Positions 4,481 to 54,836 of a stretch of DNA of 64,000 nt are shown piece by piece. Source of the stretch: an uncultured Myxococcales bacterium (GTDB lineage: Bacteria > Desulfobacterota > Binatia > UBA1149 > SPBQ01); the NCBI GenBank assembly GCA_964555245.1, contig CAZKRI010000042.1, positions 2,567 to 66,566 of the forward strand, written 5' to 3'. Under the pieces are notes generated by a model, which worked only from the letters and a program-made list of their open reading frames with translations, was not told the DNA's origin and ran no database searches. A program made the translations under genes and the position numbers. How positions within the stretch are numbered: position 1 is the first letter of the stretch; each line of letters opens with the position of its first letter.

Positions 4481-5029
4481 GTGCCGGGCGGCGAGTCACG
4501 ACCAACACTGGGCAGTACGAGGCGAGCGCTGCTGCTGCGCGCGCCGTTCGTCGCGATGGCCGGCGCCATCGCGGCGAGCTACGGGACCCTGCTCGGCTTC
4601 ATGGCGCGGTTTCTCTTTCCAGCGCGCTCGCAGCCGGTAGCCTGGCTCTACGTGGAGCAGCTACGCAGGCTCGCGCCCGGTCAGACCGTCCTTTATAAGA
4701 CGCCCGCCGGTCACAGCGTGAACATCACGCGGCGCGGCGGCGGCGAGTCGGCCGACGACTTCGCGGCGCTCTCGAGCGTGTGCCCCCACCTGGGCTGCCA
4801 GGTTCACTGGGAGCCGCAGAACAACCGTTACTTCTGCCCCTGCCACAACGGCGTGTTCTCGCCCGATGGTGTGGCCACCGCCGGGCCGCCGGCGGAGGCG
4901 GGCCAGCGGCTCGCCTCGTACCCGCTCAAGGTGGAGAGCGGGGTTCTCTATATCGAGGCTCCGCTCGACGCGTTGCCGACCGGCGCGGTCGCGCACTCGC
5001 ACGCGAAGCGCGCCGCGGACGGGGTCTGA
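4481..5029 (+). CDS. Rieske [2Fe-2S] iron-sulfur subunit of a cytochrome bc/b6f-type complex
   Basis: GTG start preceded by GGGAGGGGG. Tat-like N-terminus (STRRALLLRAPFVAMAGA). Rieske boxes CPHLGC ... CPCHNG. Confidence 0.9.
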   Translation: MPGGESRPTLGSTRRALLLRAPFVAMAGAIAASYGTLLGFMARFLFPARSQPVAWLYVEQLRRLAPGQTVLYKTPAGHSVNITRRGGGESADDFAALSSVCPHLGCQVHWEPQNNRYFCPCHNGVFSPDGVATAGPPAEAGQRLASYPLKVESGVLYIEAPLDALPTGAVAHSHAKRAADGV

Positions 5030-5033
5030 GTCC

Positions 5034-6080
5034 GTGAGCCTGCAGCAGTGGATCCAGGAGCGGTTGCCGATCTCGGGAGAAGACCTTCGCGAGCTGACCA
5101 ACGAGCCGGTTCCCAAGCACCTGCGCCGCTGGTGGTACTGCCTGGGCGGCACGCCGGCGTATCTGTTCGTCGTTCAGATCGCGACCGGGATTCTGCTCTC
5201 GGTCTACTATCAGCCGGCCACGCGCACCGCCTACGAGTCGATTCGCTACATCACTCAGGAGGTTTCCTTCGGCTGGTACATCCGGAGCCTCCACAAGTGG
5301 GCGGCGACCTTCATGATCGCCGCCGTCGTTCTTCACCAGATGCGCGTGTTCTTCACGGGCGCCTACCGCCGTCCCCGCGAGCTCAACTGGATGGTGGGTA
5401 TGTCTCTGCTGCTGCTCACGCTCTTGACGGGCTTTACGGGCTACAGCCTCGCCTTCGAGCAGCTCAGCTACTGGGGCGCGACGGTAGCCGCCAACATCAA
5501 CGAAGCGATTCCCGTGTTCGGCGGCCCGCTCAAGCGCATGCTGCTCGCCGGCGAGGTCTACAACGAGCACACGCTGTCGCGTTTCTTCATTCTGCACGCC
5601 GCCGTCCTGCCCGTGGGGATGGTGGGGCTGCTCGCGGTTCACATCGGCTTGATCCGGCTGCACGGCGTAACCGAGCTGCAGAGCGAGGAGGACCCGGCCT
5701 CCACGCGGGGACATTTCAACTTCTACCCCGACCACCTGCTGACCGAGGTGATCATCGGCTTGCTCTTGATGGTGCTGCTCACCACGCTAGCGATCGTCTT
5801 TCCGGCAGGGCTCGGGCCGCCGGCCGACCCGCTGGTCACGCCCGAGGTCATCAAGCCCGAATGGTTCTTCTACGCCGCGTTCCGCTGGCTCAAGCTGCTG
5901 CCGGAGCAGGCTGCAATCCTCACCACGGGGTTCGTCGTATTCGTCATGTTCGTCTGGCCGCTCGTCGATGGCTGGCTGGGGCGCTATCGACGCACCGCCG
6001 AATTGAGCATGTTCGTGGGCATCGCCGCCGCGCTCACCATCATCGGCCTGACGGTTTGGGAAGCGGCGGTCGCGCACTAA
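5034..6080 (+). CDS. cytochrome b subunit (b6/bc type) of the Rieske/cytb complex
   Basis: GTG at 5034 lies 5 bp after the Rieske stop, in frame with track ORF 4866..6080. Typical cytochrome b N-terminus and heme-ligating His-containing helices (WYIRSLHKWAATFM, HAAVLPVG). About 349 aa, multi-TM. Confidence 0.88.
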   Translation: MSLQQWIQERLPISGEDLRELTNEPVPKHLRRWWYCLGGTPAYLFVVQIATGILLSVYYQPATRTAYESIRYITQEVSFGWYIRSLHKWAATFMIAAVVLHQMRVFFTGAYRRPRELNWMVGMSLLLLTLLTGFTGYSLAFEQLSYWGATVAANINEAIPVFGGPLKRMLLAGEVYNEHTLSRFFILHAAVLPVGMVGLLAVHIGLIRLHGVTELQSEEDPASTRGHFNFYPDHLLTEVIIGLLLMVLLTTLAIVFPAGLGPPADPLVTPEVIKPEWFFYAAFRWLKLLPEQAAILTTGFVVFVMFVWPLVDGWLGRYRRTAELSMFVGIAAALTIIGLTVWEAAVAH

Positions 6081-6102
6081 CCGAGGGAGCACCGGCGGAT
6101 TC

Positions 6103-7677
6103 ATGACCCTGAAGACCAAGCAGATCGTCATCGCATCTCTGGCGACCTTGTTTCTACTGTCGTTGGTGTTCGTCCAGTGGATGGAAGTCGTGCGTAAGAA
6201 GGAAGAAGCGGGACTGGCCGCGCCGCACATCGTCGTTCCGGCGGCCTCCGCTGATTGCGTCAAGTGCCACGGACAATCCACCCCCGGCGTGGTCGCCCAC
6301 TGGAAGGGCAGCACCCACGCACGCAAGGGCGTGGCCTGCTTCGAGTGCCACCAGGCGACGGCGGATGAAGCGGACGCGTTCGAGCACTACGGAGCCATGA
6401 TCGCTACCATCGTCACCCCGCGCGATTGCGGCGGCTGCCATCGCGATGTGGTGGCTGAGTTCGCGCAGAGCCACCACGCCAAGGGCGGCAACATCCTTGC
6501 CTCCCTTGACAACTTCCTGGCCGAGACGGTCGAAGGCTCACGCGTGCCCTTCGACCCGCACTCGCCCACGCCGGGCCGGATCGTGGAGCAGGTGGACGGG
6601 CTGGCCAGCGTCAACTCCGGTTGCAAGCAGTGCCACGGGAGCCTCGTCGCCCTGTTGGCCGAAGACGGCCAGCCGATCACGGTGCGGGATCTCCAGCCCG
6701 ATGCGGAGGGTAAACCGACCAACAAGGCAGCGATCGCGCGCATCCTCAAGAACGACGAGGGCAAGCCACACTACGACCCGGCGACTTGGCCGAACACGGG
6801 CATCGGTCGGATCAACCTCGACGGCTCGCTCGGCTCCTGCTCGGCCTGCCACAGTCGTCACGACTTTTCCCCGCGCCGCGCCCGGCAGCCCGAAAACTGC
6901 GGCAAGTGTCACCTGGGTCCCGACCATCCTCAGAAGGAGATCTACGAGGAGTCCAAGCACGGCGTGGCCTATCGCGATCTGCGCGAGCAGATGAATCTGG
7001 ACGGCGAATCCTGGGTTCTCGGCGTCGACTACGCGCAGGCGCCGACCTGCGCGACCTGTCACATGTCGGGCCACTCGCGCAACGACGGCAAGATCACCCA
7101 CGACCCGGGCGAACGGATCTCCTGGACCAATCGCCCGCCGGTGAGCCTGGTGATGGACACGGACGCCAACCACGCAGTGGTCAAGGCGACCGACCCGGAC
7201 GAGCGCGACCGGCTCATCGTGGACCGCTGGCAGGACAAGCGCGCGCGCATGAAACAGGTCTGCGCGCACTGTCACTCACCTGACTACATCAATGCATTCT
7301 ACGTCCAGTACGACGACCTAGTGATCCTCTTCAACGAAAAGTTCGCCAAGCCTGGTCAGGCCATCATCGCGGCGCTGCGTGCCAACGACTTGCTTACACC
7401 GATCGAGTTCGACGAAGAGATCGAATGGACTTGGTTCTACCTCTGGCACCACGAAGGCCGCCGCGCCCGTCATGGCGCGGCGATGATGGCGCCCGACTAC
7501 ACGCACTGGCACGGTATGTACGAGGTCGCCGACCGGTTCTACATGCAGCTCATCCCGCAGGCGCGCGAGCTTGCCGACCACGCACCTCCCGCGGCCGCGG
7601 CTGCCGTGCGTGCGGTGATCGACGGGATTATCGCCCGTCCCGAGCACGCCTGGAGCAAGGCCTCCGCCGCACACTGA
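6103..7677 (+). CDS. membrane-anchored octaheme c-type cytochrome (HAO/ONR-like multiheme family suspected)
   Basis: 524 aa. N-terminal signal anchor. Eight CXXCH motifs (CVKCH, CFECH, CGGCH, CKQCH, CSACH, CGKCH, CATCH, CAHCH). Immediately downstream of the Rieske/cytb genes on the same strand. Confidence 0.8.
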   Translation: MTLKTKQIVIASLATLFLLSLVFVQWMEVVRKKEEAGLAAPHIVVPAASADCVKCHGQSTPGVVAHWKGSTHARKGVACFECHQATADEADAFEHYGAMIATIVTPRDCGGCHRDVVAEFAQSHHAKGGNILASLDNFLAETVEGSRVPFDPHSPTPGRIVEQVDGLASVNSGCKQCHGSLVALLAEDGQPITVRDLQPDAEGKPTNKAAIARILKNDEGKPHYDPATWPNTGIGRINLDGSLGSCSACHSRHDFSPRRARQPENCGKCHLGPDHPQKEIYEESKHGVAYRDLREQMNLDGESWVLGVDYAQAPTCATCHMSGHSRNDGKITHDPGERISWTNRPPVSLVMDTDANHAVVKATDPDERDRLIVDRWQDKRARMKQVCAHCHSPDYINAFYVQYDDLVILFNEKFAKPGQAIIAALRANDLLTPIEFDEEIEWTWFYLWHHEGRRARHGAAMMAPDYTHWHGMYEVADRFYMQLIPQARELADHAPPAAAAAVRAVIDGIIARPEHAWSKASAAH

Positions 7678-7787
7678 GCCGGGCTACGACGAAGAGAGCG
7701 AAGAAACGGATTTGAGCGGACTTCTCTCTCTTGGCCTAGCCCGCCCGGCCGAGTAGGAGATTAATGGGTTTGTGGCAGGAGGGTCGG

Positions 7788-8609
7788 ATGCGGGCACGGG
7801 TGAAGGTGGTGGTTGCCGTTGCGTTGGGGTGCGTCGGCCTGCAGACCTTGGCGAGAGCGACGGATTCCGTGGGTGTGCTCGTACTGAAAGAGCACGGCGT
7901 AAGCAGCCCGTCCCTCGTTCAGCCATACCTGGATCGGTTCGTCGCGCTCGCCGCGCGGCTGAACGGCTGGCCAAGCGCCGTTGGACAGTACCACGCCAGT
8001 CGCGCTCCCGCAGAGGCATTCATTCAGGCGGCCAAGCCGCACTACGGGATTCTGTCGTTGTCCGCCTTCCTCGCTTTCCGCAACGAGTATCACCTAGAGG
8101 TGATCGGGCAAGTCTCCGTCTCGCTCGCGGGCGGGCGGCAGTACAGCGTCATCAGTCGGACCGCCCCCGATCTGGCGAGCTGCAAGGGAAAAGTGTTAGC
8201 CACCGACCATGGTGATGATGCGCGCTTCATTGACCGCGTGGTGTCGGGGGGAAAGTTTCGCCTGAGCGACTTCACCGTCGAGCACACGCAACGGCCGCTG
8301 CAGACGATCAAGGCCATCATTGGCGGCAACGCCGCCTGCGCGCTCGTTGACGAGTCGCAACTCGAGCAGCTCTCGCACATCGAAGGCGCCGACGGCATCC
8401 GGCCGGTGTGGCAGAGCGCCGAACTGCCACAGATGGTCGTAGTCGCTTTTTCCGCCGCGCCTGCGGATGAGCGCAAGCGCTTCCAGAGCAAGCTGGCGGA
8501 GGTGTGCGACAATGACGGACAAACCGCCTGCGCCGAAGTCGGCATCCAATCACTCGATGCAGCTAGCGTCGCCGACTATGCGGCGGTCGTGGCGGCCTAT
8601 GGCCCATAG
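7788..8609 (+). CDS. exported hypothetical protein, possibly a PhnD/SsuA-like periplasmic binding fold
   Basis: Signal peptide MRARVKVVVAVALGCVGLQTLARA. Track ORF 7764..8609. No catalytic motif recognised. The fold call is weak. Confidence 0.5.
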   Translation: MRARVKVVVAVALGCVGLQTLARATDSVGVLVLKEHGVSSPSLVQPYLDRFVALAARLNGWPSAVGQYHASRAPAEAFIQAAKPHYGILSLSAFLAFRNEYHLEVIGQVSVSLAGGRQYSVISRTAPDLASCKGKVLATDHGDDARFIDRVVSGGKFRLSDFTVEHTQRPLQTIKAIIGGNAACALVDESQLEQLSHIEGADGIRPVWQSAELPQMVVVAFSAAPADERKRFQSKLAEVCDNDGQTACAEVGIQSLDAASVADYAAVVAAYGP

Positions 8610-9309
8610 CCGCGGCCGACTGCGAGCATCTCACGCCGCTCGGTGGCGGCACCTGCTGCGGCTCGCCTGCTGCGTCTTGTGCGTGACTGCGGGCTGTGCG
8701 GCTCGTAAGGGCACCCTGCACTCGGCGCTGCGCACCGCCGCCGACCAGCGCGATGCCCTGGCGGTCTCGGATAGCCTCGAAGCGTTGATCGCGGCGGGAA
8801 TCGACACACCCGCGGATCGGCGATTCGCCCACGAGGCCGTGTCCGAGGACCACGACGACACGGCCGCCACCACCTACGCACGAGCCTCGGTCACCGGCCG
8901 GCTGATCCAGCAAAAGGGTCTCCTCGGCGCCAGTCTCATGCCAGACGTGGAGCGCAGCGCGTGCCGCAGTCGGGAGCTGGATCCCGCCTTTCGCGGTGGC
9001 GCGGCGACGCGCCTGCTCGGCACCCTCTATGTGCTCGCGCCCGGCTCTCTCTTGCAGCACGGCGACTCGGAGGAAGGCGTCGCCCTGCTCGAAGGCCTCG
9101 TACGGACGTATCCCGACATGGCGGAGAACCACCTGCGCCTGGCGGAGGCGTACATCGCGCTCGGTGACCCGGCCCCGGCGCTCCCTCACCTATGCCGGTG
9201 CCTCGATGTGCGCGCTACACTGAGGCGCGACGAGCAGTTGCTGCTCGCCGAGCTCATCGCCAGCGTCGGAACGCTCGACTGCCGTGCGGCAGCGTCGCCG
9301 ATTCACTGA
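8599..9309 (+). CDS. TPR-like lipoprotein (hypothetical)
   Basis: ATG at 8599 overlaps the upstream stop (ATGGCCCATAG). Lipobox-like LRLACCVLCVTAGCAA. Helical, TPR-like C-terminus (AENHLRLAEAYIALGDPAPAL). Confidence 0.5.
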   Translation: MAHSRGRLRASHAARWRHLLRLACCVLCVTAGCAARKGTLHSALRTAADQRDALAVSDSLEALIAAGIDTPADRRFAHEAVSEDHDDTAATTYARASVTGRLIQQKGLLGASLMPDVERSACRSRELDPAFRGGAATRLLGTLYVLAPGSLLQHGDSEEGVALLEGLVRTYPDMAENHLRLAEAYIALGDPAPALPHLCRCLDVRATLRRDEQLLLAELIASVGTLDCRAAASPIH

Positions 9310-11639
9310 TCCTGCCGCGGCTTGGCGGGATCGTCGGGGCGTTCACGAAAGAGAATCCAAAGCGCGGCGGGCAGCGCGGTGAAGTCCGCGATCATCGACA
9401 GGACGAACGCCAGCGCCGAGAGCATGCCGAACTGGCGTATCGGCGGGAGGTCGGCGAGTCCGAAAGCCAGAAAGCCACCGGCGTTGATGAGTGTCGCGAA
9501 GCCGATCGCCCGCCCGGAGACCAGGAGCGTGTGCCGCAAGGCCTGTTCGACGCTGCCGCGCCGGCGCCCTTCGAGGAAGTGATAGAAGAAGTGGATCTGG
9601 TCGTTCTCGGAGGTGCCCAGCACCGTCGAGGCAATGAGAATCGTCGCGACGTTGAGCATCATCCCGCTGACGCGCATCACCCCGAACATCACCAGGATCG
9701 CGAAGATCGATGGAATCATCGCCATCAGCCGCGCGGTGCCGTTTCGGAAGATCAACAGAAACGTGCCGAAGATGATCACCACGGTGAGGGTGAAGCTCTC
9801 GGCGAGAGTCGGCACTAAGCTCTGTGCCATCTTTGCTTGCAGCGGTGCCAGCCCGACGACCTGCAGCTCGAGCTCATGCAGGGCGGGGTTTGCCGCGAGC
9901 GCGGACGACCAGCTCTCGCCGATCATGCCGCGAAGGCGCTCGTAGTCCTCGCCTTCGTTGCTCCGGCTGATGACCGTGAGCTGGGCCTGCGCCAGGCCCG
10001 GCGGATCTACGAAGCGACTGATTAACGGTTCATGCGCAGCGATCGCTTCCAGATCGCCCGCCACCTGATCGAGCGTTGCCGCGTCCGTCGGCCACGCGTC
10101 ACCCGCCCCACCGATGTAGCGCAGCATGCGGAGGATGGTCGTTGGACCGACGACGGCGCCGACGTCCGGTGCGGCCTCCAGCGCATGTTGAAAGTCGTAC
10201 AGCCCGGTGAGCACGTCGGGCTCTGACATGCTGCCGACGTCACCTTTGAGCCACACGTGCGTGACCGACAGTCCCGGGATGACCGGCGTGAGGCGGCGCA
10301 TGTCTTGATAGATCGGTGCGGCATGATCGATGTACTCGAGCGGCTCGGTCAGCAGTGGCATCGGAGTGACGACGCCCGGCAGCCCGAAGACGGCGACCAG
10401 GCCCGCCGCCGACAAACCGAGCGGCGCCACCACCAAGGGCCAGCGCCAGCGATAGGTGAAGCGCGGAAGGTTCGTCGCCAGATGCGTCAACCACGCCGCT
10501 GCACCGCGCTGCTCTTGCTCCGTCGGCGTGCGTAAAATCTTCTGCAGCGCGGGGAAGAGCGTGAACACCGTCACCCACGTCAGCGCCAGACCGACGGCCA
10601 CCCACAGGCCCATCTCGCGAATGATGCGAAGGTTGGAGATCCCGAGTGCCGCGAAGCCGGCCGCGGTCGCAAAGATCGACGCCGTGCAAGGTACGAACTT
10701 GTTGGTGAGCGTGAACAACTGGTGGGCGTCGACCGCGCGATCGGCGGGACGCTCGACGAAGCGCGATTGCAGGTAGACCAAGGTGGCGCTTGCCGTCACC
10801 AGGACGGTCATCGGCACCATGGGCGAGACGAGCGTGAACGTGCCACCGGTCAGACCGATGTAGCCAACGCACAGGGCCAAACACATGGCGAGGGTGAGCA
10901 CGAATGCGACGAGCGTGCGGAACGATCGGTACAGGGCGATCGTGAGGGCGATCACGAACAGGCCGAAGAGCACGAAGTAGAGCGGTGCCGAGCGCTGCGC
11001 GTCGTCGAGGTAGACATTGACGAAGGACTGGCCGAGCCGGCTGATGTGCCGCACAGGCCCCAGATCGGCCGCAACGGTCGCCAGCGCCCGATCAATGGCG
11101 GCAACCGTCTCCTGGCGTTCCAGACTACCGCGGACATCGAGCACGAGACCGATCGCGAGATAGTGCGCCCCGAACAGCCCCTGGCGCCGAAACAGATCGG
11201 TCCCGGTGGCAAAGTCACGCAAGCGGGCGACCTGATCGCCCGTGGGCTCGAAGCCGGCCCTCGCGCGGCGATAGACCGACAGCAACGAGTTCGTTGTCAG
11301 CCGCGGAATGCCCTGCAAGGCGCGTTCGATGCGGTCGACCCGTTCGACCACAGCTGCGTCGAACGGGTCATCGGCCTCGGCCAGCAGCAACGCAAACTCG
11401 CCGGCGCCGAATGTCTCCTCGAACGCCCGCGTAGCGACGTAGTCTGGGTCGCTGTGCGCCAACAACCGGTCGATCGAGTTGTCCTGCCCGACCTGCGCGG
11501 CATAGTACGCGCTGGGCGGCAACAGCAGCGCGTAGACGACGATCACGTACCAGCGCCACGCGATGACCCTGGCGAACGCGCGCGCCAGCCACGGCGGATC
11601 GTACAACCCACCCTCCCCCCGCTCGAATGGTCGCGCCAT
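9303..11639 (-). CDS. MMPL/RND-superfamily exporter
   Basis: 778 aa. Two 6-TM bundles, each followed by a large periplasmic loop: typical MMPL/RND topology. Confidence 0.75.
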   Translation of the reverse strand: MARPFERGEGGLYDPPWLARAFARVIAWRWYVIVVYALLLPPSAYYAAQVGQDNSIDRLLAHSDPDYVATRAFEETFGAGEFALLLAEADDPFDAAVVERVDRIERALQGIPRLTTNSLLSVYRRARAGFEPTGDQVARLRDFATGTDLFRRQGLFGAHYLAIGLVLDVRGSLERQETVAAIDRALATVAADLGPVRHISRLGQSFVNVYLDDAQRSAPLYFVLFGLFVIALTIALYRSFRTLVAFVLTLAMCLALCVGYIGLTGGTFTLVSPMVPMTVLVTASATLVYLQSRFVERPADRAVDAHQLFTLTNKFVPCTASIFATAAGFAALGISNLRIIREMGLWVAVGLALTWVTVFTLFPALQKILRTPTEQEQRGAAAWLTHLATNLPRFTYRWRWPLVVAPLGLSAAGLVAVFGLPGVVTPMPLLTEPLEYIDHAAPIYQDMRRLTPVIPGLSVTHVWLKGDVGSMSEPDVLTGLYDFQHALEAAPDVGAVVGPTTILRMLRYIGGAGDAWPTDAATLDQVAGDLEAIAAHEPLISRFVDPPGLAQAQLTVISRSNEGEDYERLRGMIGESWSSALAANPALHELELQVVGLAPLQAKMAQSLVPTLAESFTLTVVIIFGTFLLIFRNGTARLMAMIPSIFAILVMFGVMRVSGMMLNVATILIASTVLGTSENDQIHFFYHFLEGRRRGSVEQALRHTLLVSGRAIGFATLINAGGFLAFGLADLPPIRQFGMLSALAFVLSMIADFTALPAALWILFRERPDDPAKPRQDQ

Positions 11640-19705: not shown

Positions 19706-21616
19706 TCACGGTGTGTACCAGATCGGTGAGGTGTAGGCGCGCTCGGTCACCGTCATGGGGACCTCGGGCCCCATCGTGATCCCGAAACGCTTGGCGTCGT
19801 AGGCCGTCCAGCGCGGGGTCGGAATCTCGATCACGCGCACGTAGTAGAAGGCGCGCTGGCTCGGGTCGAACTCGGGATCCTTCCAATAGACGGACAGCAG
19901 CGGGTCGCCGATGGTGTTCTTCCACGTGGCATTCTTCACGTCGACGGTGTTGCCGACTGGCGTCTTACAGCGGTCATCCGTATCGATCTTGCGGCCGTCC
20001 GACACCGCCACATCAACGACTTTCTCGTGGGTCTGGCCCTTGGCGTCGAGCCAGCCCTTGATGATCTGAACGCGATCCAGGTTCGCTCCGTCCGGGTCGC
20101 GCATGGCGCGGAGAAGGAAGACGGGTACCTTGCCCGCGGGCGCAGCGGAAAGACTGCCGCCCATCGGTACGCCGCGCGCATAGCCTTGGTCCGCGAAATC
20201 GGGCAGATCGACCTCTTCGGGCTTGAAGTTCCAACCGGCAAAGACGCGGACGAGGATACGCGTGCCGGTCGTGGCATAGACCTCCTTCTTCTGCATCGCG
20301 GCGAAGATGGCTTCACGGGTGTTCTCGCGCCCCCAGACAGCGGCATAGCCGCCGGCGCCCATGCTGTAGCCGTAGGTCGCCAGCTTCGGATCGCCGTTCG
20401 CCGCCTTCCACAGCACTTCCTCCCACCGACGGGGCGACGGCTCGTTCGGGGCGATCTTGCCGAAGAAGTTCTCCTCACCGGGGGCGGAGAGCGCGGTGTG
20501 GGCATCGGTGCTGCCGATCATACCGAACTTGAATGGGTTGGCGCCGAGCCGCGCCTCGTGCTGCAGCCCCATCTTGAGCGCCGAGCGGGCGTAATTGTAA
20601 GGAAGCATCTCCTTGGTCGTCACGATGGTGCCGCCGAGGGTCGTGTTGTCCCAGCGCTCGAAGTCGGCGAACTCGTCCGTGGGCGATAGGCTCGGTGTCG
20701 TCTCGCCGTCGCCCTTGATCTGGGTCACTTCGTAGACCGGCTCCCACTTCATTCGCTGCTCGGCGTAGGCGCGGTCGAACGGCTTGCCGCCGAACGTTTT
20801 GTCCGAGAACATCAATCCGGCGCTCACGTTGCCGTTGTGCGCGATGGCGAGCACTTCGCCCCCTGTCTTCTGCTCGTAGGCAGCGAGATAGCGCCAGAGA
20901 TCCTCGGGGTCCTCGCTGTCGAAAGCCGACAACGGAATGACCTGGCGCGTGTGGTTACCCCCTTCGCGGAAGATGATGACGCGGTGAAGGTTCGCGCTGT
21001 TCGGCATGGAGGTCCATTCGAAGCCGATGAACGCCGTGAACTTGCCTGGATCGTTGTACTTCTCGGCCGCGGTGATCTCGCGTTCCCACGCGGCGCGCTG
21101 GGCTTCGGGGCTCTTGAAGCGCTGGTTGCGCTTGCCGATGTCGAGCACGGCTTCGAGCGTCGCGTCGATGGCCTGCTGTCCTCCCGCGCGAAACATGTCG
21201 TACCAGCGCTTCCCGGCCGGGTCAGCCAGCAGCGCAGGATCGCCCTCGCGCAGCATGTTGGCCAACCCGAGATACTCGGCGTGATCAGACACCACCAGGA
21301 AATCGTGTGGACGCCGGAGCTGCGCCTTCAGCCCGCCGCTCGAGGTCACCACTTCACCACGCGCGAAGCGGAACGCCTCCTCCGGCCCGAGCGTCGTGCC
21401 CGTCAGGCCGGCATCCGGGGAGAACGACGTGTGCAGGTGCGTGTCCCCCCAGAGCACGCGATCAGGGATGTTGCGGCCCACATAGGGCGAGTAGTGCTTC
21501 TCGGCGACCCTGATGGTTTCCTTCTTTACTGGGACATCCTGCGCGAATGACGGCAAGACAAGGCCAATTGCCATCAGACCCGCGAGCGCTGCGTTACGAA
21601 GTGTTCGGCTTTTCAT
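19706..21616 (-). CDS. secreted DUF3604-family (PHP-like) metal-dependent protein
   Basis: 636 aa. Signal peptide. WGDTHLHTSFSPDAG metal-binding His motif near the N-terminus, typical of DUF3604. Confidence 0.6.
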   Translation of the reverse strand: MKSRTLRNAALAGLMAIGLVLPSFAQDVPVKKETIRVAEKHYSPYVGRNIPDRVLWGDTHLHTSFSPDAGLTGTTLGPEEAFRFARGEVVTSSGGLKAQLRRPHDFLVVSDHAEYLGLANMLREGDPALLADPAGKRWYDMFRAGGQQAIDATLEAVLDIGKRNQRFKSPEAQRAAWEREITAAEKYNDPGKFTAFIGFEWTSMPNSANLHRVIIFREGGNHTRQVIPLSAFDSEDPEDLWRYLAAYEQKTGGEVLAIAHNGNVSAGLMFSDKTFGGKPFDRAYAEQRMKWEPVYEVTQIKGDGETTPSLSPTDEFADFERWDNTTLGGTIVTTKEMLPYNYARSALKMGLQHEARLGANPFKFGMIGSTDAHTALSAPGEENFFGKIAPNEPSPRRWEEVLWKAANGDPKLATYGYSMGAGGYAAVWGRENTREAIFAAMQKKEVYATTGTRILVRVFAGWNFKPEEVDLPDFADQGYARGVPMGGSLSAAPAGKVPVFLLRAMRDPDGANLDRVQIIKGWLDAKGQTHEKVVDVAVSDGRKIDTDDRCKTPVGNTVDVKNATWKNTIGDPLLSVYWKDPEFDPSQRAFYYVRVIEIPTPRWTAYDAKRFGITMGPEVPMTVTERAYTSPIWYTP

Positions 21617-24928: not shown

Positions 24929-26377
24929 CTAGCCCGCCGCTAGGTTCGTCCGTGGGACCTCCACGGCCGCGAGCATCTCGTCGAAGCTCTCTTCGACGGC
25001 GCCGACGTAGTCGTGCAGGTCCGGCATCAGGTCGCGGTCGGCGTTGAACCCCCAGCACATCTTGCCGGCGTAACTGAACAGAGCGATCCCCACACCTTGA
25101 CCGGCGAACAGCGGCACGAGCGGGTACGTGACCAGGAGTCTCGCGTCGAGAAGGTAGAGCGGAAACGGCGGGCCGGGGACGTTGGTCACCACCACGTTGT
25201 ACGGATGGACGCGCCCGAGTAGCCGCACCATGGTCGACAGCAATGCCGGCGAGGTCCACTCGCTCAAGGATTCGAACAACTCGGTGCCGCGCGCTTGCTG
25301 CGAGCGCTTGAGACGCGTCATGGTTTCTCGCACCTGCTCGAGGCGGCGCAGTGGTTCACGCTCGGTGATGGGCAGCTCGGCGATCATGTTGGACACGCGA
25401 TTGCCGAGGTTGCCGCGCTCGCCCACGGCCCGCATGTTCACCGGACAGAACACGCGGAACGGAAGCACGCTTTGCGCTGACGAGGAGATCCCGCGCCGAG
25501 ACAGGAACCGCCCGGTCGCGCCGGCGACGGCGGCCAGGACGACGTCGTTCACGGTCGCACCGACGGCTCGCTTGACGGCCTTGACGGCATCGAGGTCCAG
25601 CGTCAGCCAATCGAAACGGCGATGCGAACCGATGGCGCGATTGAAGGGGGTGTCGAGTGCCTGTCGCATGCCGGCGGCGAACACCTCGGCGAGGGCACCT
25701 GCTGCTTCGCCTAACTGCCGTGCGGCAGCGATGGGATTGCGGACGGCTTCGCTCGCCGCCGTGCGCGCGAAAGCCAGCGGTGTTGCCACCCGGCGCACCA
25801 GAGCATCACGCGCGACTTGCGCCGCCGTGGGCGGCGGCGCCGGGATCCAGCGATGCGTCTTGCCGACCTCGGCTTGTGGCTCGGCCGTGAGCAGCACGGC
25901 CAGCAGATCGGCTCCCGAGACGCCGTCGATCATGCAGTGGTGGGTCTTGTTGACCAGCGCGAAACGGTCGCCTTCGAGACCCTCCACGATCCACATTTCC
26001 CAGAGCGGCTTTCCGCGGTCGAGCTGCTGGGAGTTGATCCACGCCACTAGACGTTTGAGCTGACGGTCATCGCCCGGGCGCGGCAGGCTCGTGTGCCGGA
26101 CGTGATAGCGGATGTTGAAGCTCTCGTCGTCGACCCAGACGGGGTTGGATGAGAACGGCACGCGCGCCAACCGTTGGCGGTAGCGTGGCAGCAGGTGCAG
26201 GCGTGAGGCGATGTAGCTGCGGATAGCATCGCTATCGATGCCGTGATGGTCGCGCTTGAGCGGACCGGCTTCGAAGATGCACGTTCCGCCGACGTGCATG
26301 TGGGTGGTGCGATCCTCGATGTCGAGGAAGAAACGATCGAGAGCCGTAAGCCGCGCGTAGTTGGCCACGAGAGCCAC
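24929..26377 (-). CDS. wax ester synthase/diacylglycerol acyltransferase (WS/DGAT)
   Basis: 482 aa. Catalytic HHxxxDG motif (HHCMIDGVSG). Confidence 0.85.
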   Translation of the reverse strand: MALVANYARLTALDRFFLDIEDRTTHMHVGGTCIFEAGPLKRDHHGIDSDAIRSYIASRLHLLPRYRQRLARVPFSSNPVWVDDESFNIRYHVRHTSLPRPGDDRQLKRLVAWINSQQLDRGKPLWEMWIVEGLEGDRFALVNKTHHCMIDGVSGADLLAVLLTAEPQAEVGKTHRWIPAPPPTAAQVARDALVRRVATPLAFARTAASEAVRNPIAAARQLGEAAGALAEVFAAGMRQALDTPFNRAIGSHRRFDWLTLDLDAVKAVKRAVGATVNDVVLAAVAGATGRFLSRRGISSSAQSVLPFRVFCPVNMRAVGERGNLGNRVSNMIAELPITEREPLRRLEQVRETMTRLKRSQQARGTELFESLSEWTSPALLSTMVRLLGRVHPYNVVVTNVPGPPFPLYLLDARLLVTYPLVPLFAGQGVGIALFSYAGKMCWGFNADRDLMPDLHDYVGAVEESFDEMLAAVEVPRTNLAAG

Positions 26378-43451: not shown

Positions 43452-46226
43452 GTGCCGATTCTCCGACCCGAGTCGCTGCTGGCGCTGGTCGTAGCGATTC
43501 CGTTCGTTCTGGCCGCAGCCGCGCTCCTGATCGGGAGCGGGGCGGGCGGACGCGCGGGCTGGCTGATGGTGGCGGCGGCAGCCGCCTCATTCCTGGGGTG
43601 CATCACGCTGGTGCCGGCCGCTTGGGAGGGGGCGTCGGTCGTGCTGGCCGCGCAGTGGATGCCCGCGATCGGCGTGACGTTCGCGCTGCGCGCGGATGCG
43701 TTCGGGCTGATGTTCGCGCTGCTCATCTCGGGCATCGGCACCCTGATCGGCGTCTACTCGATGAGCTACATGCCCGCCGTCTGCGCGCCGGCGCGACTGG
43801 TTCGTTACTACGCCGCCTTGCTCGCGTTCATGGGCGCGATGCTCGGAGTCGCTCTGGCCGATGACTTGATCCTGCTGTTCGTGTTCTGGGAGATCACGAG
43901 CCTCACCTCGTTCCTGCTGATCGGCTTCTGGGACGAGCACGAGGAGGCGCGCAACGGCGCCATGACCGCGCTGCAGATCACCGCGCTGGGTGGCATGGTG
44001 ATGATGGCCGGCATCGTCTTGGTCGGGATCACCTGTGGTACATTCAGTTTGCGCGCACTGGCACAGGATCCGGCCGTGCGCGACACGCTGGCCGCCTCGC
44101 CGGCCTTCGCTCCTGCCCTGCTGCTGCTGCTGGCCGGAGCGCTGACCAAGTCGGCGCAGTGGCCGTTCCATTTTTGGCTGCCGGGCGCGATGGTCGCTCC
44201 CACGCCGATCTCGACCTACCTGCACGCTGCGACGATGGTGCAGGCGGGCGTGTTCCTGATGGGTCGCTTGTTACCCATCTTCTCGGCTTCGCCCCTGTGG
44301 TTCGCCATCCTGGTGCCGCTCGGTCTGGGCACCTTTCTGACAGGGGCGATCGGGGCGCTGCGGGTCAGCGATCTCAAGGCGATGCTCGCGCGTACCACGG
44401 TGGCTTCACTCGGCCTGTTTACGTTCGGCTACGGAGTCGGCGCCAATGCTCAGGACGCCCTGCAGATCCTCTCGCACGCCGCCTACAAGGGTGCGCTCTT
44501 CCTGGTCGCCGGCATCATTGAGCACGCAACCCACACCCGCGACCTCCGGCGCTTGGGCGGTCTGCGGGCGCGCATGCCGATCACGTTCGCGATTTGTGTG
44601 GTCGCGGCAAGCGCGATGGCCGGGATCTGGCCGTCGCTGGGGTTTCACGCCAAGGAGCTCACCTACCACGGGCTCCTTCAGCTGTACGCCGTCGAACCGT
44701 TGTTGCGCTGGACGATGCTCGCACTGGTAGTCGCCGGGAATGCGTGCCTGGTGGCGGTCGCACTCACCTTGGTGGTGAAACCGTTTTTTGGTCCGCTCGG
44801 TGCCGAAGCCGCGCATGCTCACGAGGCCGGCCCCGGGTTGTGGCTGCCGCCGGCGGTTCTGGCCGCGGCGACTTTGGCCTTCGGCGCGATGCCGGAGGTT
44901 ACCGGACGGATGGTCTCGGCGTTCTCTTCGCGACCGGGTGCCGCCGTGCATCTCTCGCTAGCAGCGTCGGGCCCCGAGCTGCTTCTCACGTTGCTCACCA
45001 CCACTGCGGGCGTGGGCTTGTTCCTGCTGCGCAAGGCGATTGCGGCTCCTGCGCCGTCGCGTCTAACGATGCAGCGGCTGTGGGATGGGGCGATCGAGGC
45101 TACCACACGCGCGGCCACCGCGTTCAGCGGCCGATGGCAAAATGGCTCGGTCCATTGGTACTTCTCCGGCACGCTGGTCTTCACCGTCGGGCTTGCCGCC
45201 TACGCCTTGGCGCACCACGGCATCTCGCCGCGCATGGTGAGCATCGACCTGCACGAACTGCAGTGGTACGGGGCGAGCCTGTGCATGATGCTCGCGGTTT
45301 CGGCGGTGATGGTGGTGCGGTTCAACACGCGCGTGGCCGCTGCAATCGCGCTCACCACCAACGGCTTCCTCACCGCGCTCCTGTTCGTCGTCTATCGCTC
45401 GCCCGACATTCTGCTCACGCAGATCCTCATCGAGACGGTTTCGACGATCTTCATTCTGCTGATCTTCTACTTCATGCCGGCCTTCAAGCCCGAGAAGACG
45501 CCGGCGATCCGACGCACGGCCAATCTGACGATCTCGGTGGCGGTAGGGGCGGCGATGTTCGCGTTCGTGATGCTCAGTACCAGCCCGCAGTTTCGCGAGA
45601 CCAACAACCTCGGCCTCGAGTATCTGAGCCGTTCGCTCGCGGATGCCGGCGGCGCCAACGCGGTCAACGTCATCATCGTCGACTTCCGCGCGATCGACAC
45701 CAACGGTGAGATCACCGTCCTCATGATGGTGGCCTTGGTCGTCTTCGGTCTGCTGCGTGCGCGGCGGGCGGGACCGCGACCAGCGGTTTCGCCGCCGGAT
45801 CCCGTGGTGGTCCACGGCGACAGCCCGATCTTGCGCACGGCCGCCCGTTTCGCAGTTCCGCTGACCGCGTGGGTTTCGATCGTGATCTTCATGCAGGGGC
45901 ACAACCTGCCGGGCGGCGGCTTCATCGCCGGCGTGATGGGAGCGGCTGCCGGGGCCATGACCATGCTCGCCTTCGGGCTCGGTGCGGCGGTGCGGGTGCC
46001 GTGGTGGAAAGTGTCGGTGCTCGGGCTGCTGGCTTCGGTCGGCACTGGGATGGTGCCGTTCGTGCTCGGGCGCTCCTACATGGATCACGAGATCTTGCAC
46101 TTTCATCTTCCCATGATCGGACTCTACGAGCTGCCCACGGCGACGTTCTTCGACCTCGGCGTCTACATGATCGTGCTCGGCACGATCATGACGATGTTCG
46201 TCGAGCTGGGACAGGAGGGCAGCTAG
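43452..46226 (+). CDS. mrpA: Na+/H+ antiporter subunit A (with fused B domain)
   Basis: 924 aa, polytopic. NuoL/MrpA-like proton-pumping module, with the extra C-terminal MrpB-like domain typical of MrpA. Confidence 0.85.
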   Translation: MPILRPESLLALVVAIPFVLAAAALLIGSGAGGRAGWLMVAAAAASFLGCITLVPAAWEGASVVLAAQWMPAIGVTFALRADAFGLMFALLISGIGTLIGVYSMSYMPAVCAPARLVRYYAALLAFMGAMLGVALADDLILLFVFWEITSLTSFLLIGFWDEHEEARNGAMTALQITALGGMVMMAGIVLVGITCGTFSLRALAQDPAVRDTLAASPAFAPALLLLLAGALTKSAQWPFHFWLPGAMVAPTPISTYLHAATMVQAGVFLMGRLLPIFSASPLWFAILVPLGLGTFLTGAIGALRVSDLKAMLARTTVASLGLFTFGYGVGANAQDALQILSHAAYKGALFLVAGIIEHATHTRDLRRLGGLRARMPITFAICVVAASAMAGIWPSLGFHAKELTYHGLLQLYAVEPLLRWTMLALVVAGNACLVAVALTLVVKPFFGPLGAEAAHAHEAGPGLWLPPAVLAAATLAFGAMPEVTGRMVSAFSSRPGAAVHLSLAASGPELLLTLLTTTAGVGLFLLRKAIAAPAPSRLTMQRLWDGAIEATTRAATAFSGRWQNGSVHWYFSGTLVFTVGLAAYALAHHGISPRMVSIDLHELQWYGASLCMMLAVSAVMVVRFNTRVAAAIALTTNGFLTALLFVVYRSPDILLTQILIETVSTIFILLIFYFMPAFKPEKTPAIRRTANLTISVAVGAAMFAFVMLSTSPQFRETNNLGLEYLSRSLADAGGANAVNVIIVDFRAIDTNGEITVLMMVALVVFGLLRARRAGPRPAVSPPDPVVVHGDSPILRTAARFAVPLTAWVSIVIFMQGHNLPGGGFIAGVMGAAAGAMTMLAFGLGAAVRVPWWKVSVLGLLASVGTGMVPFVLGRSYMDHEILHFHLPMIGLYELPTATFFDLGVYMIVLGTIMTMFVELGQEGS

Positions 46227-46237
46227 TGGAGCTGCCG

Positions 46238-46585
46238 ATGGCCTTGGCGATCGCCGTGCTGTTCGCGGCCGGTACCTATCAGATCCTGCGGCCCAACTTG
46301 ATCCGGCTGGTCATGGGTTTCGGACTCTACTCGAACGCGACCAACCTCCTGCTCATCACCGTCGGCGGGTACACCCGCGCAGCCGGTGCGCCGTTCGTCG
46401 GGCAGGATCCGCGCTCGGCTGCCGGCCTCATGGACCCGCTGCCGCCCGACATCATCCTGACCGCGATCGTGATCAGCTTTGCCGTCAGCGCGCTGCTGCT
46501 GACGGTCTGTTACCGCGTCTATGCCGATCACGGCACCGATGATCCCCACCAGTTGCCCGTCGACGACGAGGCCGAGCCCGGATGA
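46238..46585 (+). CDS. mrpC: Na+/H+ antiporter subunit C (NuoK-like)
   Basis: ATG at 46238 (alternatively the GTG at 46226 that overlaps the mrpA stop). 115 aa, three TM helices: MALAIAVLFAAGTYQILRPNLIRLVMGFGLYSNATNLLLITVG. Confidence 0.75.
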   Translation: MALAIAVLFAAGTYQILRPNLIRLVMGFGLYSNATNLLLITVGGYTRAAGAPFVGQDPRSAAGLMDPLPPDIILTAIVISFAVSALLLTVCYRVYADHGTDDPHQLPVDDEAEPG

Positions 46586-48117
46586 ACAGCCTGATCGTTC
46601 CGTTGCTCGTGCCGTTCGTGGCCGCCCTGGTGCTAGCGCTCCTCAACGGCTGGTCGCGCCTGGAGCGAGCCATTGCCGTGCTTGCCACCGTCGGGCTCAC
46701 GGCGTGGGCGTTCTGGCTGCTCTGGCTGGTGGACACTCACGGCATCCAGGCCACCGTCATCGGCGGCTGGCGGGCGCCATGGGGCGTGGCGTTCGTGGCC
46801 GACCGGCTCTCGGCGATCATGCTCTGCCTGTCGATGACCGTCGGCTCGGTGGTTACGGTCTACACGCTGTGGACCGTGACCGAACAGCAGCAGCGCTATT
46901 TCTTCTACCCGCTCATGCAGCTCACGTTGCTGGGGGTCAACTGGTCGTTCATGACCGGCGACGTTTTCAATCTGTTCGTGGCCTACGAGGTCATGTTGAT
47001 GGCCTCCTACGGCATGATGATGGTGGGGGCCAGCAAGGCGCAGGTACGCCAGACCTTCATGTACATCGGCATCAACGCGATCGGCTCCACCTTGTTCGTC
47101 GTTGCCTGCGGCGTGATCTACGCGACCACCGGAACGCTCAACATGGCCGATCTTGCCGTTCGGACCGAAGCTCTGGTGGGTGCGCGCGCGGCGATGGTCA
47201 CCGCCGGATCGATGCTGTTGCTGGTCGTCTTCTTGCTCAAGTCGGCGACGTTCCCGCTCATCTATTGGCTGCCCGACTCCTACCCGGTGGTGCCGGCGGG
47301 CGTCAACGGGTACTTCGCGGGCCTGCTGACCAAGGTGGGCGTCTATTCGCTCTTGCGCGTGTTCGTCATGCTGTTCCGCCAGGAGGGCGCCGACTTCGCG
47401 CTCGACGTGATCCTGTTGCTCTCGGGCTTCACGATGCTGCTGGGCGTGTTGGGTGCGATGTGTCAGTGGGAGATCCGCCGCATTCTGTCGTGGCACATCA
47501 TCAGCCAGGTCGGCTACATGGTGATGGGGATAGGCTTGGCCGGCAGCGCCGACCCGCGAGTCGTCGATCTCGCGATCGCCGGTACGATCTTCTACGTCGT
47601 GCACCACATCGTCGTGAAGTCGTGTCTATTTCTGGTCGGCGGAATCGCCGAACGCGTGAGCGGCTCCCAATCTCTCGAGAAGATGGGCGGCGTGTTGACG
47701 ATCGCGCCGGGCGTGGCAGGCCTGTTCCTGGTCGCTGCGCTCTCGCTCGCCGGCATGCCGCCGTTCTCCGGATTCTTGAGCAAGCTGGTGCTGCTGCGGG
47801 CCGGCTTGACCGGCGGCAACGTCGTCGTCGTGGCCGTTTCCATCGCGACGAGCTTCCTCACGCTCTACTCGATGACGAAGATCTGGACGCACGCGTTCTG
47901 GGGTGAGCCGCGCCGCGAGCGTGCCGTCGCGCGCTACCGGCCGCTGATGGCGCCGACCGCCGTGCTGGTGGTCTTTACGATCGTCATGGGCGTCTGGGGT
48001 CAGCCGTTCCTGGCGCTGGCGGCGCGCGCAGCCGGCTCGTTGAGCGATCCGCGCGAGTACATCGCGGCGGTCATGCAAGCCCACGTCGAGCACGCGGACG
48101 CGAGGTTGCCGCAATGA
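46582..48117 (+). CDS. mrpD: Na+/H+ antiporter subunit D (NuoM/N-like)
   Basis: 511 aa. Complex-I antiporter-like subunit. 4-bp overlaps with both neighbours. Confidence 0.85.
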   Translation: MNSLIVPLLVPFVAALVLALLNGWSRLERAIAVLATVGLTAWAFWLLWLVDTHGIQATVIGGWRAPWGVAFVADRLSAIMLCLSMTVGSVVTVYTLWTVTEQQQRYFFYPLMQLTLLGVNWSFMTGDVFNLFVAYEVMLMASYGMMMVGASKAQVRQTFMYIGINAIGSTLFVVACGVIYATTGTLNMADLAVRTEALVGARAAMVTAGSMLLLVVFLLKSATFPLIYWLPDSYPVVPAGVNGYFAGLLTKVGVYSLLRVFVMLFRQEGADFALDVILLLSGFTMLLGVLGAMCQWEIRRILSWHIISQVGYMVMGIGLAGSADPRVVDLAIAGTIFYVVHHIVVKSCLFLVGGIAERVSGSQSLEKMGGVLTIAPGVAGLFLVAALSLAGMPPFSGFLSKLVLLRAGLTGGNVVVVAVSIATSFLTLYSMTKIWTHAFWGEPRRERAVARYRPLMAPTAVLVVFTIVMGVWGQPFLALAARAAGSLSDPREYIAAVMQAHVEHADARLPQ

Positions 48118-48461
48118 GCCTATCCACGCTTTTGCGCCGTGCTTTCTACGCGGCCGTTTTCGTCGTGCGGTTCTTGAAGGAGCTCGCGCTGGCCAACTAT
48201 CAAGTCGTCAAGCTCGTGCTGGCGCCGCAGCTACCGATCAGGCCGGGCTTCGTGTCGATCCCGCTCGAGGCGCGCACGGACTTCGAGATCACCAGCTTCG
48301 CCAACGCGATCACGCTGACGCCGGGCACGATCTCGGTGCACATTCCCGACGAGCGCGACGCGATCGTCATCCATGCCATCGACGTTGGGCCCGACCTCGA
48401 CGGTTTGCGCAACTCGGTCAAGCAGTCGCTGGAGGCTCCGATTCTGCGCTTCATGCGCTAG
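48114..48461 (+). CDS. mrpE: Na+/H+ antiporter subunit E
   Basis: 115 aa. MnhE-like (N-terminal TM, then a soluble domain). Confidence 0.7.
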   Translation: MSLSTLLRRAFYAAVFVVRFLKELALANYQVVKLVLAPQLPIRPGFVSIPLEARTDFEITSFANAITLTPGTISVHIPDERDAIVIHAIDVGPDLDGLRNSVKQSLEAPILRFMR

Positions 48462-48472
48462 GAGGACCGCGC

Positions 48473-48748
48473 ATGAGCCCATTTCTCACGGCCGTGACCA
48501 TGTCGTGCCTGGCCGCGCTTCTCGCGAGCGGTGCGCTCGCCATGGTCCGCCTGGCGATCGGCCCGGACACGCCCGACCGCGCCGTGGCCTTCGATGCGCT
48601 GTCGATGGTGTTCGTCGGCATCGTCTGCACGCTGTGCATCCTGTGGCACTCCACGCTGTACTTCGACGCGGTCTGGATTCTCACGCTGGTCGGTTTCCTG
48701 GGAACGGCGGCGATCGGCCGCTATCTCGAGCGCGGGAGGCTCTTTTGA
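48473..48748 (+). CDS. mrpF: Na+/H+ antiporter subunit F
   Basis: 91 aa. Three TM helices. MnhF-like. Confidence 0.7.
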   Translation: MSPFLTAVTMSCLAALLASGALAMVRLAIGPDTPDRAVAFDALSMVFVGIVCTLCILWHSTLYFDAVWILTLVGFLGTAAIGRYLERGRLF

Positions 48749-49119
48749 TGCCTGCGCTCCTCGAGATCGCGATTGCCGTGCCGATGGTGCTCGGTACCTT
48801 CCTCATCGTCGTCACCGGGCTCGGTCTGCTGCGCCTGCCGGATGTCTTCTGCCGCATGCATGCGGCCGGTAAGGCCGGCACCATGGGTATGGGACTGCTC
48901 ACCCTGGCGACGGTGATTGCGTTCGCGGGCGGAGACCACAACGTCACCGTTCGCGGCCTACTCGCAATCGTCTTCCAGTTCATCACTTCACCGACCGCGA
49001 CCCACATCCTCGCGCGCGCATGCTACGTCGGAGGCTACCCGCTCTCGGCTCGCACTGCCGTCGATGAACTGCGTGCCTTCCTGCCCTCGCGCCCGGACAC
49101 CACGGTCAGCCGAGACTGA
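48748..49119 (+). CDS. mrpG: Na+/H+ antiporter subunit G
   Basis: ATG overlaps the mrpF stop (TGATG). 123 aa. MnhG-like (VPMVLGTFLIVVTGLGLLRLPDVFCRMHAAGKAGTMG). Confidence 0.75.
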   Translation: MPALLEIAIAVPMVLGTFLIVVTGLGLLRLPDVFCRMHAAGKAGTMGMGLLTLATVIAFAGGDHNVTVRGLLAIVFQFITSPTATHILARACYVGGYPLSARTAVDELRAFLPSRPDTTVSRD

Positions 49120-50988: not shown

Positions 50989-51003
50989 CCGGAAGGAAGA
51001 ACG

Positions 51004-54474: not shown

Positions 54475-54491
54475 CAAAGGAGACGCGAGCG

Positions 54492-54832: not shown

Positions 54833-54836
<4 letters not shown>
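54492..54836 (+). CDS. small hypothetical protein encoded between the alpha and beta subunit genes
   Basis: 114 aa. Tight spacing: 18 bp after the alpha stop, 4-bp overlap with the beta start. No recognised motif. Confidence 0.5.

Follow-up and report, generated by a model that had tools for sequence, protein, structure and literature searches.

A Rieske/cytochrome b cassette with a membrane-anchored octaheme cytochrome c of the HAO family in an uncultured Binatia bacterium

The three-gene cassette described here lies in a stretch of 64,000 nucleotides (referred to as the window) on contig CAZKRI010000042.1 of an uncultured bacterium, deposited as Myxococcales and placed in the Binatia by GTDB. 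It occupies positions 4481–7677 of the window and consists of three open reading frames (ORFs) on the plus strand, which encode, in this order, a Rieske protein, a cytochrome b, and an octaheme cytochrome c:

4481–5029, plus strand: Rieske [2Fe-2S] subunit, GTG start, 182 amino acids
5034–6080, plus strand: cytochrome b, GTG start, 348 amino acids
6103–7677, plus strand: IhOCC-like octaheme cytochrome c of the hydroxylamine-oxidoreductase (HAO) family, ATG start, 524 amino acids

An earlier note on this DNA, made from its letters, had described the genes for the Rieske protein, the cytochrome b, and a protein with eight CXXCH motifs as consecutive, and both the ORFs and their Pfam matches bear this out. 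The intergenic gaps amount to 4 bp between the Rieske and cytochrome b genes (5030–5033) and 22 bp between the cytochrome b and octaheme genes (6081–6102); the latter agrees with the earlier count, the former had been given as 5 bp. A gene resembling cytochrome c1 or f is absent near the cassette, as judged by the window ORFs and Pfam—the octaheme cytochrome is the third gene. A scan for promoters and terminators gave no more than chance would: a single weak promoter-like site 600 bp upstream, and a single terminator-like hairpin that lies within the Rieske gene.

The Rieske protein reaches 35.9 bits against the Pfam family Rieske (cut-off 20.3). It features an STRRALLL motif resembling a signal for twin-arginine translocation (Tat), a single N-terminal membrane helix, and the cluster boxes CPHLGC and CPCHNGVF; its GTG start is preceded by the Shine-Dalgarno-like run GGGAGGGGG. 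Box 1 reads CPHLGC in all 71 homologues, most of which follow the pattern CPCH(N)G.F in box 2. The nearest chains in the PDB belong to Rieske proteins of the b6f type and of anammox bacteria (9rk4, 9rk3).

The cytochrome b is matched by the Pfam families Cytochrome_B (E = 5e-52) and Cytochrom_B_C and is a fusion protein, b6-like in its N-terminal half and subunit-IV-like in its C-terminal half. Its closest relatives in the PDB are the chloroplast and cyanobacterial cytochromes b6 (E = 5.6e-53). The heme-ligand pairs are His87/His101 with Hx13H spacing and His188/His203 with Hx14H spacing—the latter being the b6-type spacing of helix D—and both pairs occur in 70 of 70 homologues. The Qo motif, PEWF at residue 275 of the window protein, reads PEWF in 57 of the 70 homologues and PEWY in another 6. 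The sole cysteine, Cys36 (window 5139–5141), is part of a YCLGG motif and aligns with the heme cn/ci site in the FYCLGG motif of b6. The b6-like cytochrome b, the Hx14H spacing, the heme cn cysteine, and the b6f-like Rieske protein are shared with cytochrome b6f and Firmicute-type bc complexes. Unlike in these complexes, b6 and subunit IV form one chain of 348 residues in the window, and cytochrome f or c1 is missing; a further difference is that the heme cn column holds Ala in 40 and Cys in 33 of 73 homologues of this clade. The split follows the phyla roughly: Cys carriers are mostly Planctomycetota and the closest relatives of the window, and Ala is found in Gemmatimonadota, Acidobacteriota, Binatia, and Anaerolineales. 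The extra heme cn, as far as this column tells, seems optional among otherwise very similar complexes.

The octaheme cytochrome features eight CXXCH motifs, starting at residues 52, 79, 109, 174, 246, 266, 316, and 387, and all 16 of its cysteines sit within them, an arrangement that cannot be chance. The eight motifs are invariant among 56 diverse relatives, and a CXXCK motif is found neither in the window protein nor in any of 80 homologues. Against the Pfam family PF13447 (HAO-type multiheme), the protein scores 79.5 bits with a cut-off of 21.9; against the NCBIfam equivalog for HDH, it scores only 73.6 of the 900 required and is hence not an HDH equivalog. A profile search of the PDB ranks IhOCC (4qo5) first with 3e-52, followed by Kustc0458 (6h5l), the reductive HAO-like protein of Kuenenia (HAOr), with 1e-30 and the HAO of Nitrosomonas (NeHAO) with 2e-20; HDH and the anammox HOX follow at 1e-15 to 1e-18, and ONR at 0.003 or weaker. 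An AlphaFold model built on the 56 diverse relatives, collected by an exhaustive HMMER search, reaches a predicted local distance difference test score (pLDDT) of 93.3 and a predicted template modelling score of 0.86. An earlier model built on 25 sequences of 70–80% identity had a pLDDT of 53 and was not used. The modelled helices 393–427, 439–460, and 464–492 correspond to the long C-terminal helices of the HAO type. When the model was compared with the PDB by Foldseek, significant matches belonged to the HAO family alone, the top 11 having template modelling (TM) scores of 0.46–0.67. IhOCC is again the best match, with a TM score of 0.67, an E-value of 1e-20, and approximately 24% identity; the TM scores are 0.55 for HAOr, 0.50 for NeHAO, and about 0.5 for KsHOX and HDH. 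The ONR and NrfA structures 3ttb, 3rkh, 8rv0, and 1qdb are matched with E-values of at least 0.012 and TM scores of at most 0.30.

By these measures, the octaheme cytochrome belongs to the HAO family, to an IhOCC-like branch of it, with a fold read from a high-confidence model. The label "HAO/ONR-like" of the earlier note survives in its first half, by Pfam, PDB sequence matches, and fold; an identity as ONR or NrfA was rejected given the missing CXXCK motif, the chance-level fold match, and the weak sequence E-values. Generic Geobacter-type multiheme cytochromes, MccA, and OTR were rejected as well by the PDB sequence and fold matches, that of the MccA fold being at chance; a Geobacter-type protein lacking the HAO fold, which the earlier note had set against its own proposal, was thus looked for and is not what lies here. 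The likeness to IhOCC of Ignicoccus hospitalis extends beyond the best sequence and structure match to a long insertion between the motifs of heme 4 and heme 5 and to the lack of a cross-link Tyr; IhOCC reportedly has no P460 and has been described as reducing nitrite (PMC9250108). A difference is that IhOCC has Asp-Val in place of the Asp-His seen in the window protein and in other HAOs. A tie of IhOCC to a Rieske/cytochrome b operon is not described in the paper on Ignicoccus cytochromes (PMC4429474).

Four sites bear on whether the octaheme cytochrome is oxidative or reductive:

6622–6636, plus strand: fourth heme motif, C174-K-Q-C-H178, placed by motif order and invariant in the 56 diverse relatives
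6922–6927, plus strand: Asp274-His275, aligned by hhalign with the catalytic Asp267-His268 of NeHAO
7132–7134, plus strand: Arg344, aligned by hhalign with the active-site Tyr334 of NeHAO
7498–7506, plus strand: Tyr466-Thr467-His468, aligned by MAFFT and hhalign with Trp465-Thr466-Tyr467 of NeHAO

Following the heme order of the HAO family, the fourth motif would take the position of the catalytic, five-coordinate heme 4. The Asp-His region is conserved as CHLGPDHP in 79 of 80 homologues; among the 56 diverse relatives, 44 keep the Asp and 40 the His. Arg344 lies in a motif, SW(T/S/N)NRP, that all 80 homologues share. The position of the cross-linking Tyr was fixed with the mature NeHAO sequence, which is 100% identical to 4fas_A and places Tyr467 in GGWTYTEGW. 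The MAFFT alignment comprised 48 diverse octaheme relatives, NeHAO, and a fragment of Kuenenia HOX; in the hhalign comparison of the family with NeHAO, the Tyr region was covered by the global and the low-mact runs, the default setting ending before it. Both methods put His468 in the column of the cross-linking Tyr467, and MAFFT also puts the Tyr of Kuenenia HOX there. Over the 56 relatives this column holds His in 21, Gln in 13, Trp in 8, and Tyr in 3. His468 is nearly invariant in the close clade, where the motif PDY(T/A)HWHG occurs in 76 of 80 homologues. IhOCC features Trp-Thr-Thr at the positions of Tyr466-Thr467-His468, and Tyr466 aligns with Trp in both NeHAO and IhOCC. HAO-family members devoid of the cross-link show no oxidative activity and reduce nitrite (PMC8042395). 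Because His468 replaces the cross-linking Tyr—whose presence the earlier note had marked as a point to check—and because such proteins reduce nitrite, the octaheme cytochrome is predicted, with moderate confidence, to be a reductive enzyme and not an oxidase.

The membrane anchor of the octaheme cytochrome, which the earlier note had named, is likewise supported:

6103–6207, plus strand: N-terminal membrane helix of the octaheme cytochrome, residues 1–35, with a hydropathy peak at residues 8–26 and a single helix 3–35 in the AlphaFold model

In 25 homologues the segment is kept with the invariant residues F17, L18, S20, L21, V24, Q25, E28, R31, and E35. Because polar residues are invariant (Q25, E28, R31, and E35), the segment argues for a membrane helix that is retained and interacts—an uncleaved signal anchor—and not for a cleaved signal peptide. 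The anchor was further compared with gene order in nine distant relatives of 41–53% identity, using a neighbourhood of 4–5 kb. Cytochrome b adjoins the octaheme gene in five of five anchored relatives (P0131, P0132, P0134, P0140, and P0191), whereas it occurs within 4–5 kb in none of the four with a signal peptide (P0135, P0138, P0145, and P0149); Fisher's exact test gives p ≈ 0.008. This correlation is the best available evidence for the octaheme cytochrome as a subunit of a complex. The anchored relative P0191, at 41% identity, has the permuted order octaheme–Rieske–cytochrome b.

Close homologues of the octaheme cytochrome are widespread: at least 8000 clusters are 70–80% identical across phyla, and a scan of one genome per species yielded at least 596 confirmed places of the cassette. 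The best 80 loci of that scan (L001–L080) were compared. Cytochrome b is encoded directly upstream of the octaheme gene in 80 of 80 loci, and the Rieske gene is upstream of cytochrome b in 71; 8 of the rest end at a contig edge, and in L011 the Rieske gene is undetected and cytochrome b is seen by its C-terminal part alone. Carriers are labelled Planctomycetota, Gemmatimonadota, Acidobacteriota/Thermoanaerobaculia, Binatia, Anaerolineales, Krumholzibacteriota, Eiseniibacteriota, and others. The flanks of the cassette vary, and even a relative with over 90% identity does not share its neighbours. Because the flanks are not conserved across loci, the cassette is a self-contained mobile three-gene unit. 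One Thermoanaerobaculia chromosome (OZ220742.1) holds two whole cassettes approximately 1.4 Mb apart (L009 and L031). A 5.8-kb contig labelled Candidatus Kuenenia sp. (L037, JAYTAK010001279.1) encodes a 71%-identical octaheme cytochrome, upstream of which a cytochrome b gene ends, and may be a true anammox copy of the cassette or a binning error. At L095 (677–4719), two tandem HAO-family octaheme genes of the signal-peptide type (489 and 483 amino acids) directly follow a reductase gene with Fer2, FAD-binding, and NAD-binding domains, which is a different wiring of the HAO-type enzyme family.

The flanking ORFs of all 80 loci were clustered, and the dominant neighbour is a Tat-dependent molybdoenzyme, which scores 938 bits on the NapA equivalog. 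Among the 66 loci with enough sequence for this count, the NapA gene shares the strand of the octaheme gene in 18 and lies 62–235 bp downstream of it, usually followed by the gene of a cytochrome of about 200 residues with four hemes:

L005, L011, L012, L014, L015, L017, L018, L027, L028: NapA gene directly downstream
L036, L043, L048, L050, L051, L054, L057, L058, L068: NapA gene directly downstream, lying at about 7530–10120 in most of the 18 loci

The cytochrome after NapA is a tetraheme and not a diheme NapB-like protein in at least 10 of these loci. A gene resembling a heme-copper oxidase or NO reductase is near the cassette in only 3 loci, and recurrent genes for NO or N2O reductases beside the cassette are not found among the 80. 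Outside the close clade, a NarXL-like two-component system and a NapA-like gene border the cassette with permuted order in P0191, and the soluble relative P0135 sits near NapD and NapA. Because the NapA neighbourhood recurs and matches the layout in Caldithrix abyssi (PMC5317091), gene neighbourhood ties the octaheme family to nitrate/nitrite respiration. The cassette may serve as the quinol dehydrogenase of neighbouring Nap systems.

A second system of the window, the periplasmic NXR-like cluster of the earlier note, is present at 49348–57801. This NXR-type cluster of the periplasmic kind features a gamma-like subunit, in which a pair of cytochrome c domains is joined to an EB_dh heme-b domain; an alpha subunit with a Tat signal, matching Kuenenia NxrA (7b04_B) over its full length with 1738 bits; a beta subunit; and a delta (NarJ-like) chaperone. 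An ORF of 333 amino acids in the cluster has no family match. A physical gene cluster of NXR and cassette was rejected: 43 kb of DNA with genes for housekeeping and transport separate them. The functional link to the cassette that the earlier note had drawn is no more than hinted at, as unrelated genes intervene, NXR genes are not recurrent neighbours of the cassette among the 80 loci, and the neighbour that does recur elsewhere is NapA. Nitrospina, Nitrospira, and Kuenenia—among the organisms in which this operon type was noted first—also have NXR-type enzymes (PMC3578206, PMC6311188, PMC12485887); that operon type and NXR share organisms is a correlation. Immediately upstream of the NXR-type cluster and on the same strand (43452–49119) are genes resembling a multisubunit cation/proton antiporter of the Mrp/Mnh type: a fused MnhA/B-like protein of 924 amino acids, an MnhD-like, and an MnhG-like protein.

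On balance, the cassette probably encodes a reductase of the quinol:nitrite (or quinol:hydroxylamine) kind, with the octaheme cytochrome in place of cytochrome c1 or f. The observations behind this reading are the gene identities, the conserved adjacency, the HAO fold, the cross-linking Tyr missing by alignment, the co-occurrence of anchor and cytochrome b, and the Nap neighbourhood. From them we infer a physical complex, a direction of electron flow, a substrate, a product, and a coupling to energy conservation. The three gene products would form a single membrane complex, the octaheme cytochrome being held by its own N-terminal helix with its heme domain in the periplasm. Quinol would be oxidised at the Qo site; one electron would pass via the Rieske cluster and the heme chain of the octaheme cytochrome to the open catalytic heme 4, at which an N-oxide would be reduced; conversion of nitrite (and hydroxylamine) to ammonium is the most probable reaction. 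The second quinol electron would return via the b hemes, so that the reduction would be coupled to the proton-motive force. In genomes with NapA and a tetraheme cytochrome behind the cassette, the module probably also feeds nitrate reduction. The same mechanism has been proposed for Nitrospira (PMC6311188, PMC12342949) and Caldithrix (PMC5317091).

Several points weigh against a quinol:nitrite reductase. HAO-family enzymes are trimers and Rieske/cytochrome b complexes are dimers, which amounts to a symmetry mismatch; the oligomers of the HAO family are formed through the C-terminal helices (PMC9250108). The Tyr-column call relies on sequence alignment in a low-confidence loop, with an invariant Tyr466 two residues upstream, and the mean column identity of the octaheme cytochrome is 74% over 25 homologues, so that conservation of the pocket within the clade discriminates poorly. 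Near the cassette in this window, nap, nir, nrf, and ammonium-assimilation genes were searched for and not found, and the literature searched holds no biochemical characterisation of any such complex. The authors of the Nitrospina genome study took the corresponding operon to encode a general complex III of the cell (PMC3578206).

This last reading can be carried over to the window: the octaheme cytochrome would be an electron-transfer stand-in for cytochrome c1 or f in a general complex III that feeds NapA or oxidases, or that works in reverse from NXR to quinone. In Nitrospina, the operon was read as complex III in a setting of electron transport in both directions, forward and reverse (PMC3578206). 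At 18 of 66 loci, NapA and a tetraheme cytochrome lie behind the cassette, which fits a role in electron distribution; Rieske/cytochrome bc complexes of Campylobacterota are known to feed Nap and Nos, by titles that PMC6896113 cites; and the NXR-type cluster of the window is genuine. However, the octaheme cytochrome keeps the full catalytic architecture of HAO, including the heme-4 motif and the Asp-His pair, and a pure wire is not expected to retain residues of the distal pocket; its nearest characterised relatives are enzymes (PMC9250108, PMC8042395). The distance to the NXR-type cluster and the lack of any recurrent NXR neighbour in the 80 loci also speak against this reading. We consider a role confined to electron transfer rather improbable, although the roles of wire and enzyme could coexist.

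If the octaheme cytochrome is an enzyme, its product need not be ammonium. A one-electron nitrite reductase that forms NO, as HAOr does in vitro (PMC8042395), or a reductase that detoxifies hydroxylamine or NO, would be compatible with HAOr as the second-best match in both sequence and structure, and the HAOr homologue Kuste4574 of the anammox Rieske/cytochrome b complex has been proposed to act likewise (PMC12485887). The best match is, however, IhOCC and not HAOr; a NapA neighbourhood devoid of recurrent NO or N2O reductase genes fits ammonification better; and reviews on Nitrospira report expression data favouring assimilatory formation of ammonium (PMC6311188, PMC12342949). A product other than ammonium is thus judged less probable still than a mere electron-transfer role. 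Least credible, to a degree that makes it very unlikely, is an oxidative enzyme of the HAO or HDH kind that would pass electrons from hydroxylamine or hydrazine through cytochrome b and the Rieske protein to the quinone pool. Membership of the HAO family, the retained Asp-His pair, and the invariant Tyr466 two residues off the cross-link column could be read in this sense, yet two independent alignments place His468 and not a Tyr in that column, Tyr466 itself pairs with the Trp of NeHAO and of IhOCC, a protein without P460, and Tyr334 of NeHAO is replaced by Arg344. In addition, amo, hzs, and other ammonia-oxidation genes were not found in the window, and the family occurs in heterotroph-rich phyla and beside NapA.

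A cassette that would act as a quinol:nitrite reductase has several published counterparts. That of Nitrospira consists, by published description, of an octaheme cytochrome (OCC, also called "ONR") and petBC—Rieske, cytochrome b, and periplasmic octaheme as in the window—and is proposed to be a quinol-fed nitrite reductase forming ammonium (PMC6311188, PMC12342949); Nitrospira also has a periplasmic NXR. Its operon lies in a nitrogen-assimilation neighbourhood and is read as assimilatory, unlike the window cassette, whose neighbours are unrelated. In Caldithrix abyssi, again by description, the Rieske and cytochrome b genes (Cabys_2558/2557) adjoin the epsilon-Hao gene Cabys_2556, and the set is next to NapA and a tetraheme cytochrome; quinol oxidation coupled to a nitrite reduction that yields ammonium was proposed (PMC5317091). 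This layout with NapA is the one shared by the 18 relatives listed above, whereas the window cassette has no adjoining nap genes. Nitrospina gracilis has a bc-like operon with an "atypical octaheme cytochrome c", reported in 2013 and conserved in Kuenenia and M. oxyfera; its cytochrome b appears split into b6 and subunit IV (PMC3578206), unlike the fused protein of the window.

The comparison with anammox bacteria, made in the earlier note, holds for the operon type, which is also published outside anammox, and fails for the exact cluster kuste4569-4574. That cluster features extra NAD(P)H-oxidoreductase-like and further multiheme subunits, and the window cassette has three genes and none of these. 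Common to both is an HAO-family octaheme without the oxidative signature together with Rieske and cytochrome b, for which nitrite reduction has been proposed in R/b-3, the anammox complex of kuste4569-4574 (PMC12485887). Kuste4574 is a close homologue of HAOr (PMC12485887), which ranks second to IhOCC as a match of the window octaheme. The window cassette is therefore not the six-gene anammox cluster, just as it is not ONR/NrfA and not an oxidative HAO. The operon type itself is already published for Nitrospira, Nitrospina, Kuenenia, Methylomirabilis, and Caldithrix, and the window adds one uncultured carrier to it.

More tentatively, nitrite ammonification might have in this cassette its third route, one that would conserve energy through its coupling to a Q-cycle. 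Joined by NapA, as in about a quarter of cases, the cassette would make up a complete respiratory module from nitrate to ammonium, and in organisms with a periplasmic NXR-type enzyme, the present one included, it may be the partner that consumes this enzyme's nitrite. We hold this wider reading to be possible, with less assurance than the enzymatic assignment. The classical NrfHA route is electroneutral. If nitrite were reduced through a Q-cycle, its ammonification or assimilation would conserve energy, and the genetic potential for it would extend well beyond what nrfA and onr counts indicate, given homologues of about 70% identity in abundant, mostly uncultured soil and aquatic phyla. A recent survey of nitrate ammonifiers across many genomes looked for nrfA and onr alone (PMC10716430) and so would not have counted the cassette route. 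The window itself is of modest value in this respect, as one more uncultured carrier that also has a periplasmic NXR-type enzyme. Handles for experiment are provided by the correlation between anchor and cytochrome b, the NapA neighbour, the missing Tyr together with Asp-His and the pocket Arg, and the variable heme cn cysteine.

The cassette is flanked upstream by a bestrophin-like gene and a sulfatase gene. Three genes follow downstream:

7764–8609, plus strand: BstB-like periplasmic binding protein, scoring under the curated cut-off
8467–9309, plus strand: BstC-like TPR protein, below the cut-off; the ORF overlaps the BstB-like one by 143 bp, and its true start is probably later
9303–11639, minus strand: MMPL/HAE3/HpnN-like RND transporter with a sterol-sensing domain, below the curated cut-off

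The trio is reminiscent of BstABC, a sterol transporter set, or of a transporter for hopanoids. Its genes were rejected as members of the operon, never being found beside the cassette in the 80 loci. Three further genes of the window are unrelated to the cassette:

19706–21616, minus strand: DUF3604 protein, 796 bits
24049–24822, plus strand: protein with a HepT-like toxin domain
24929–26377, minus strand: wax-ester synthase/DGAT

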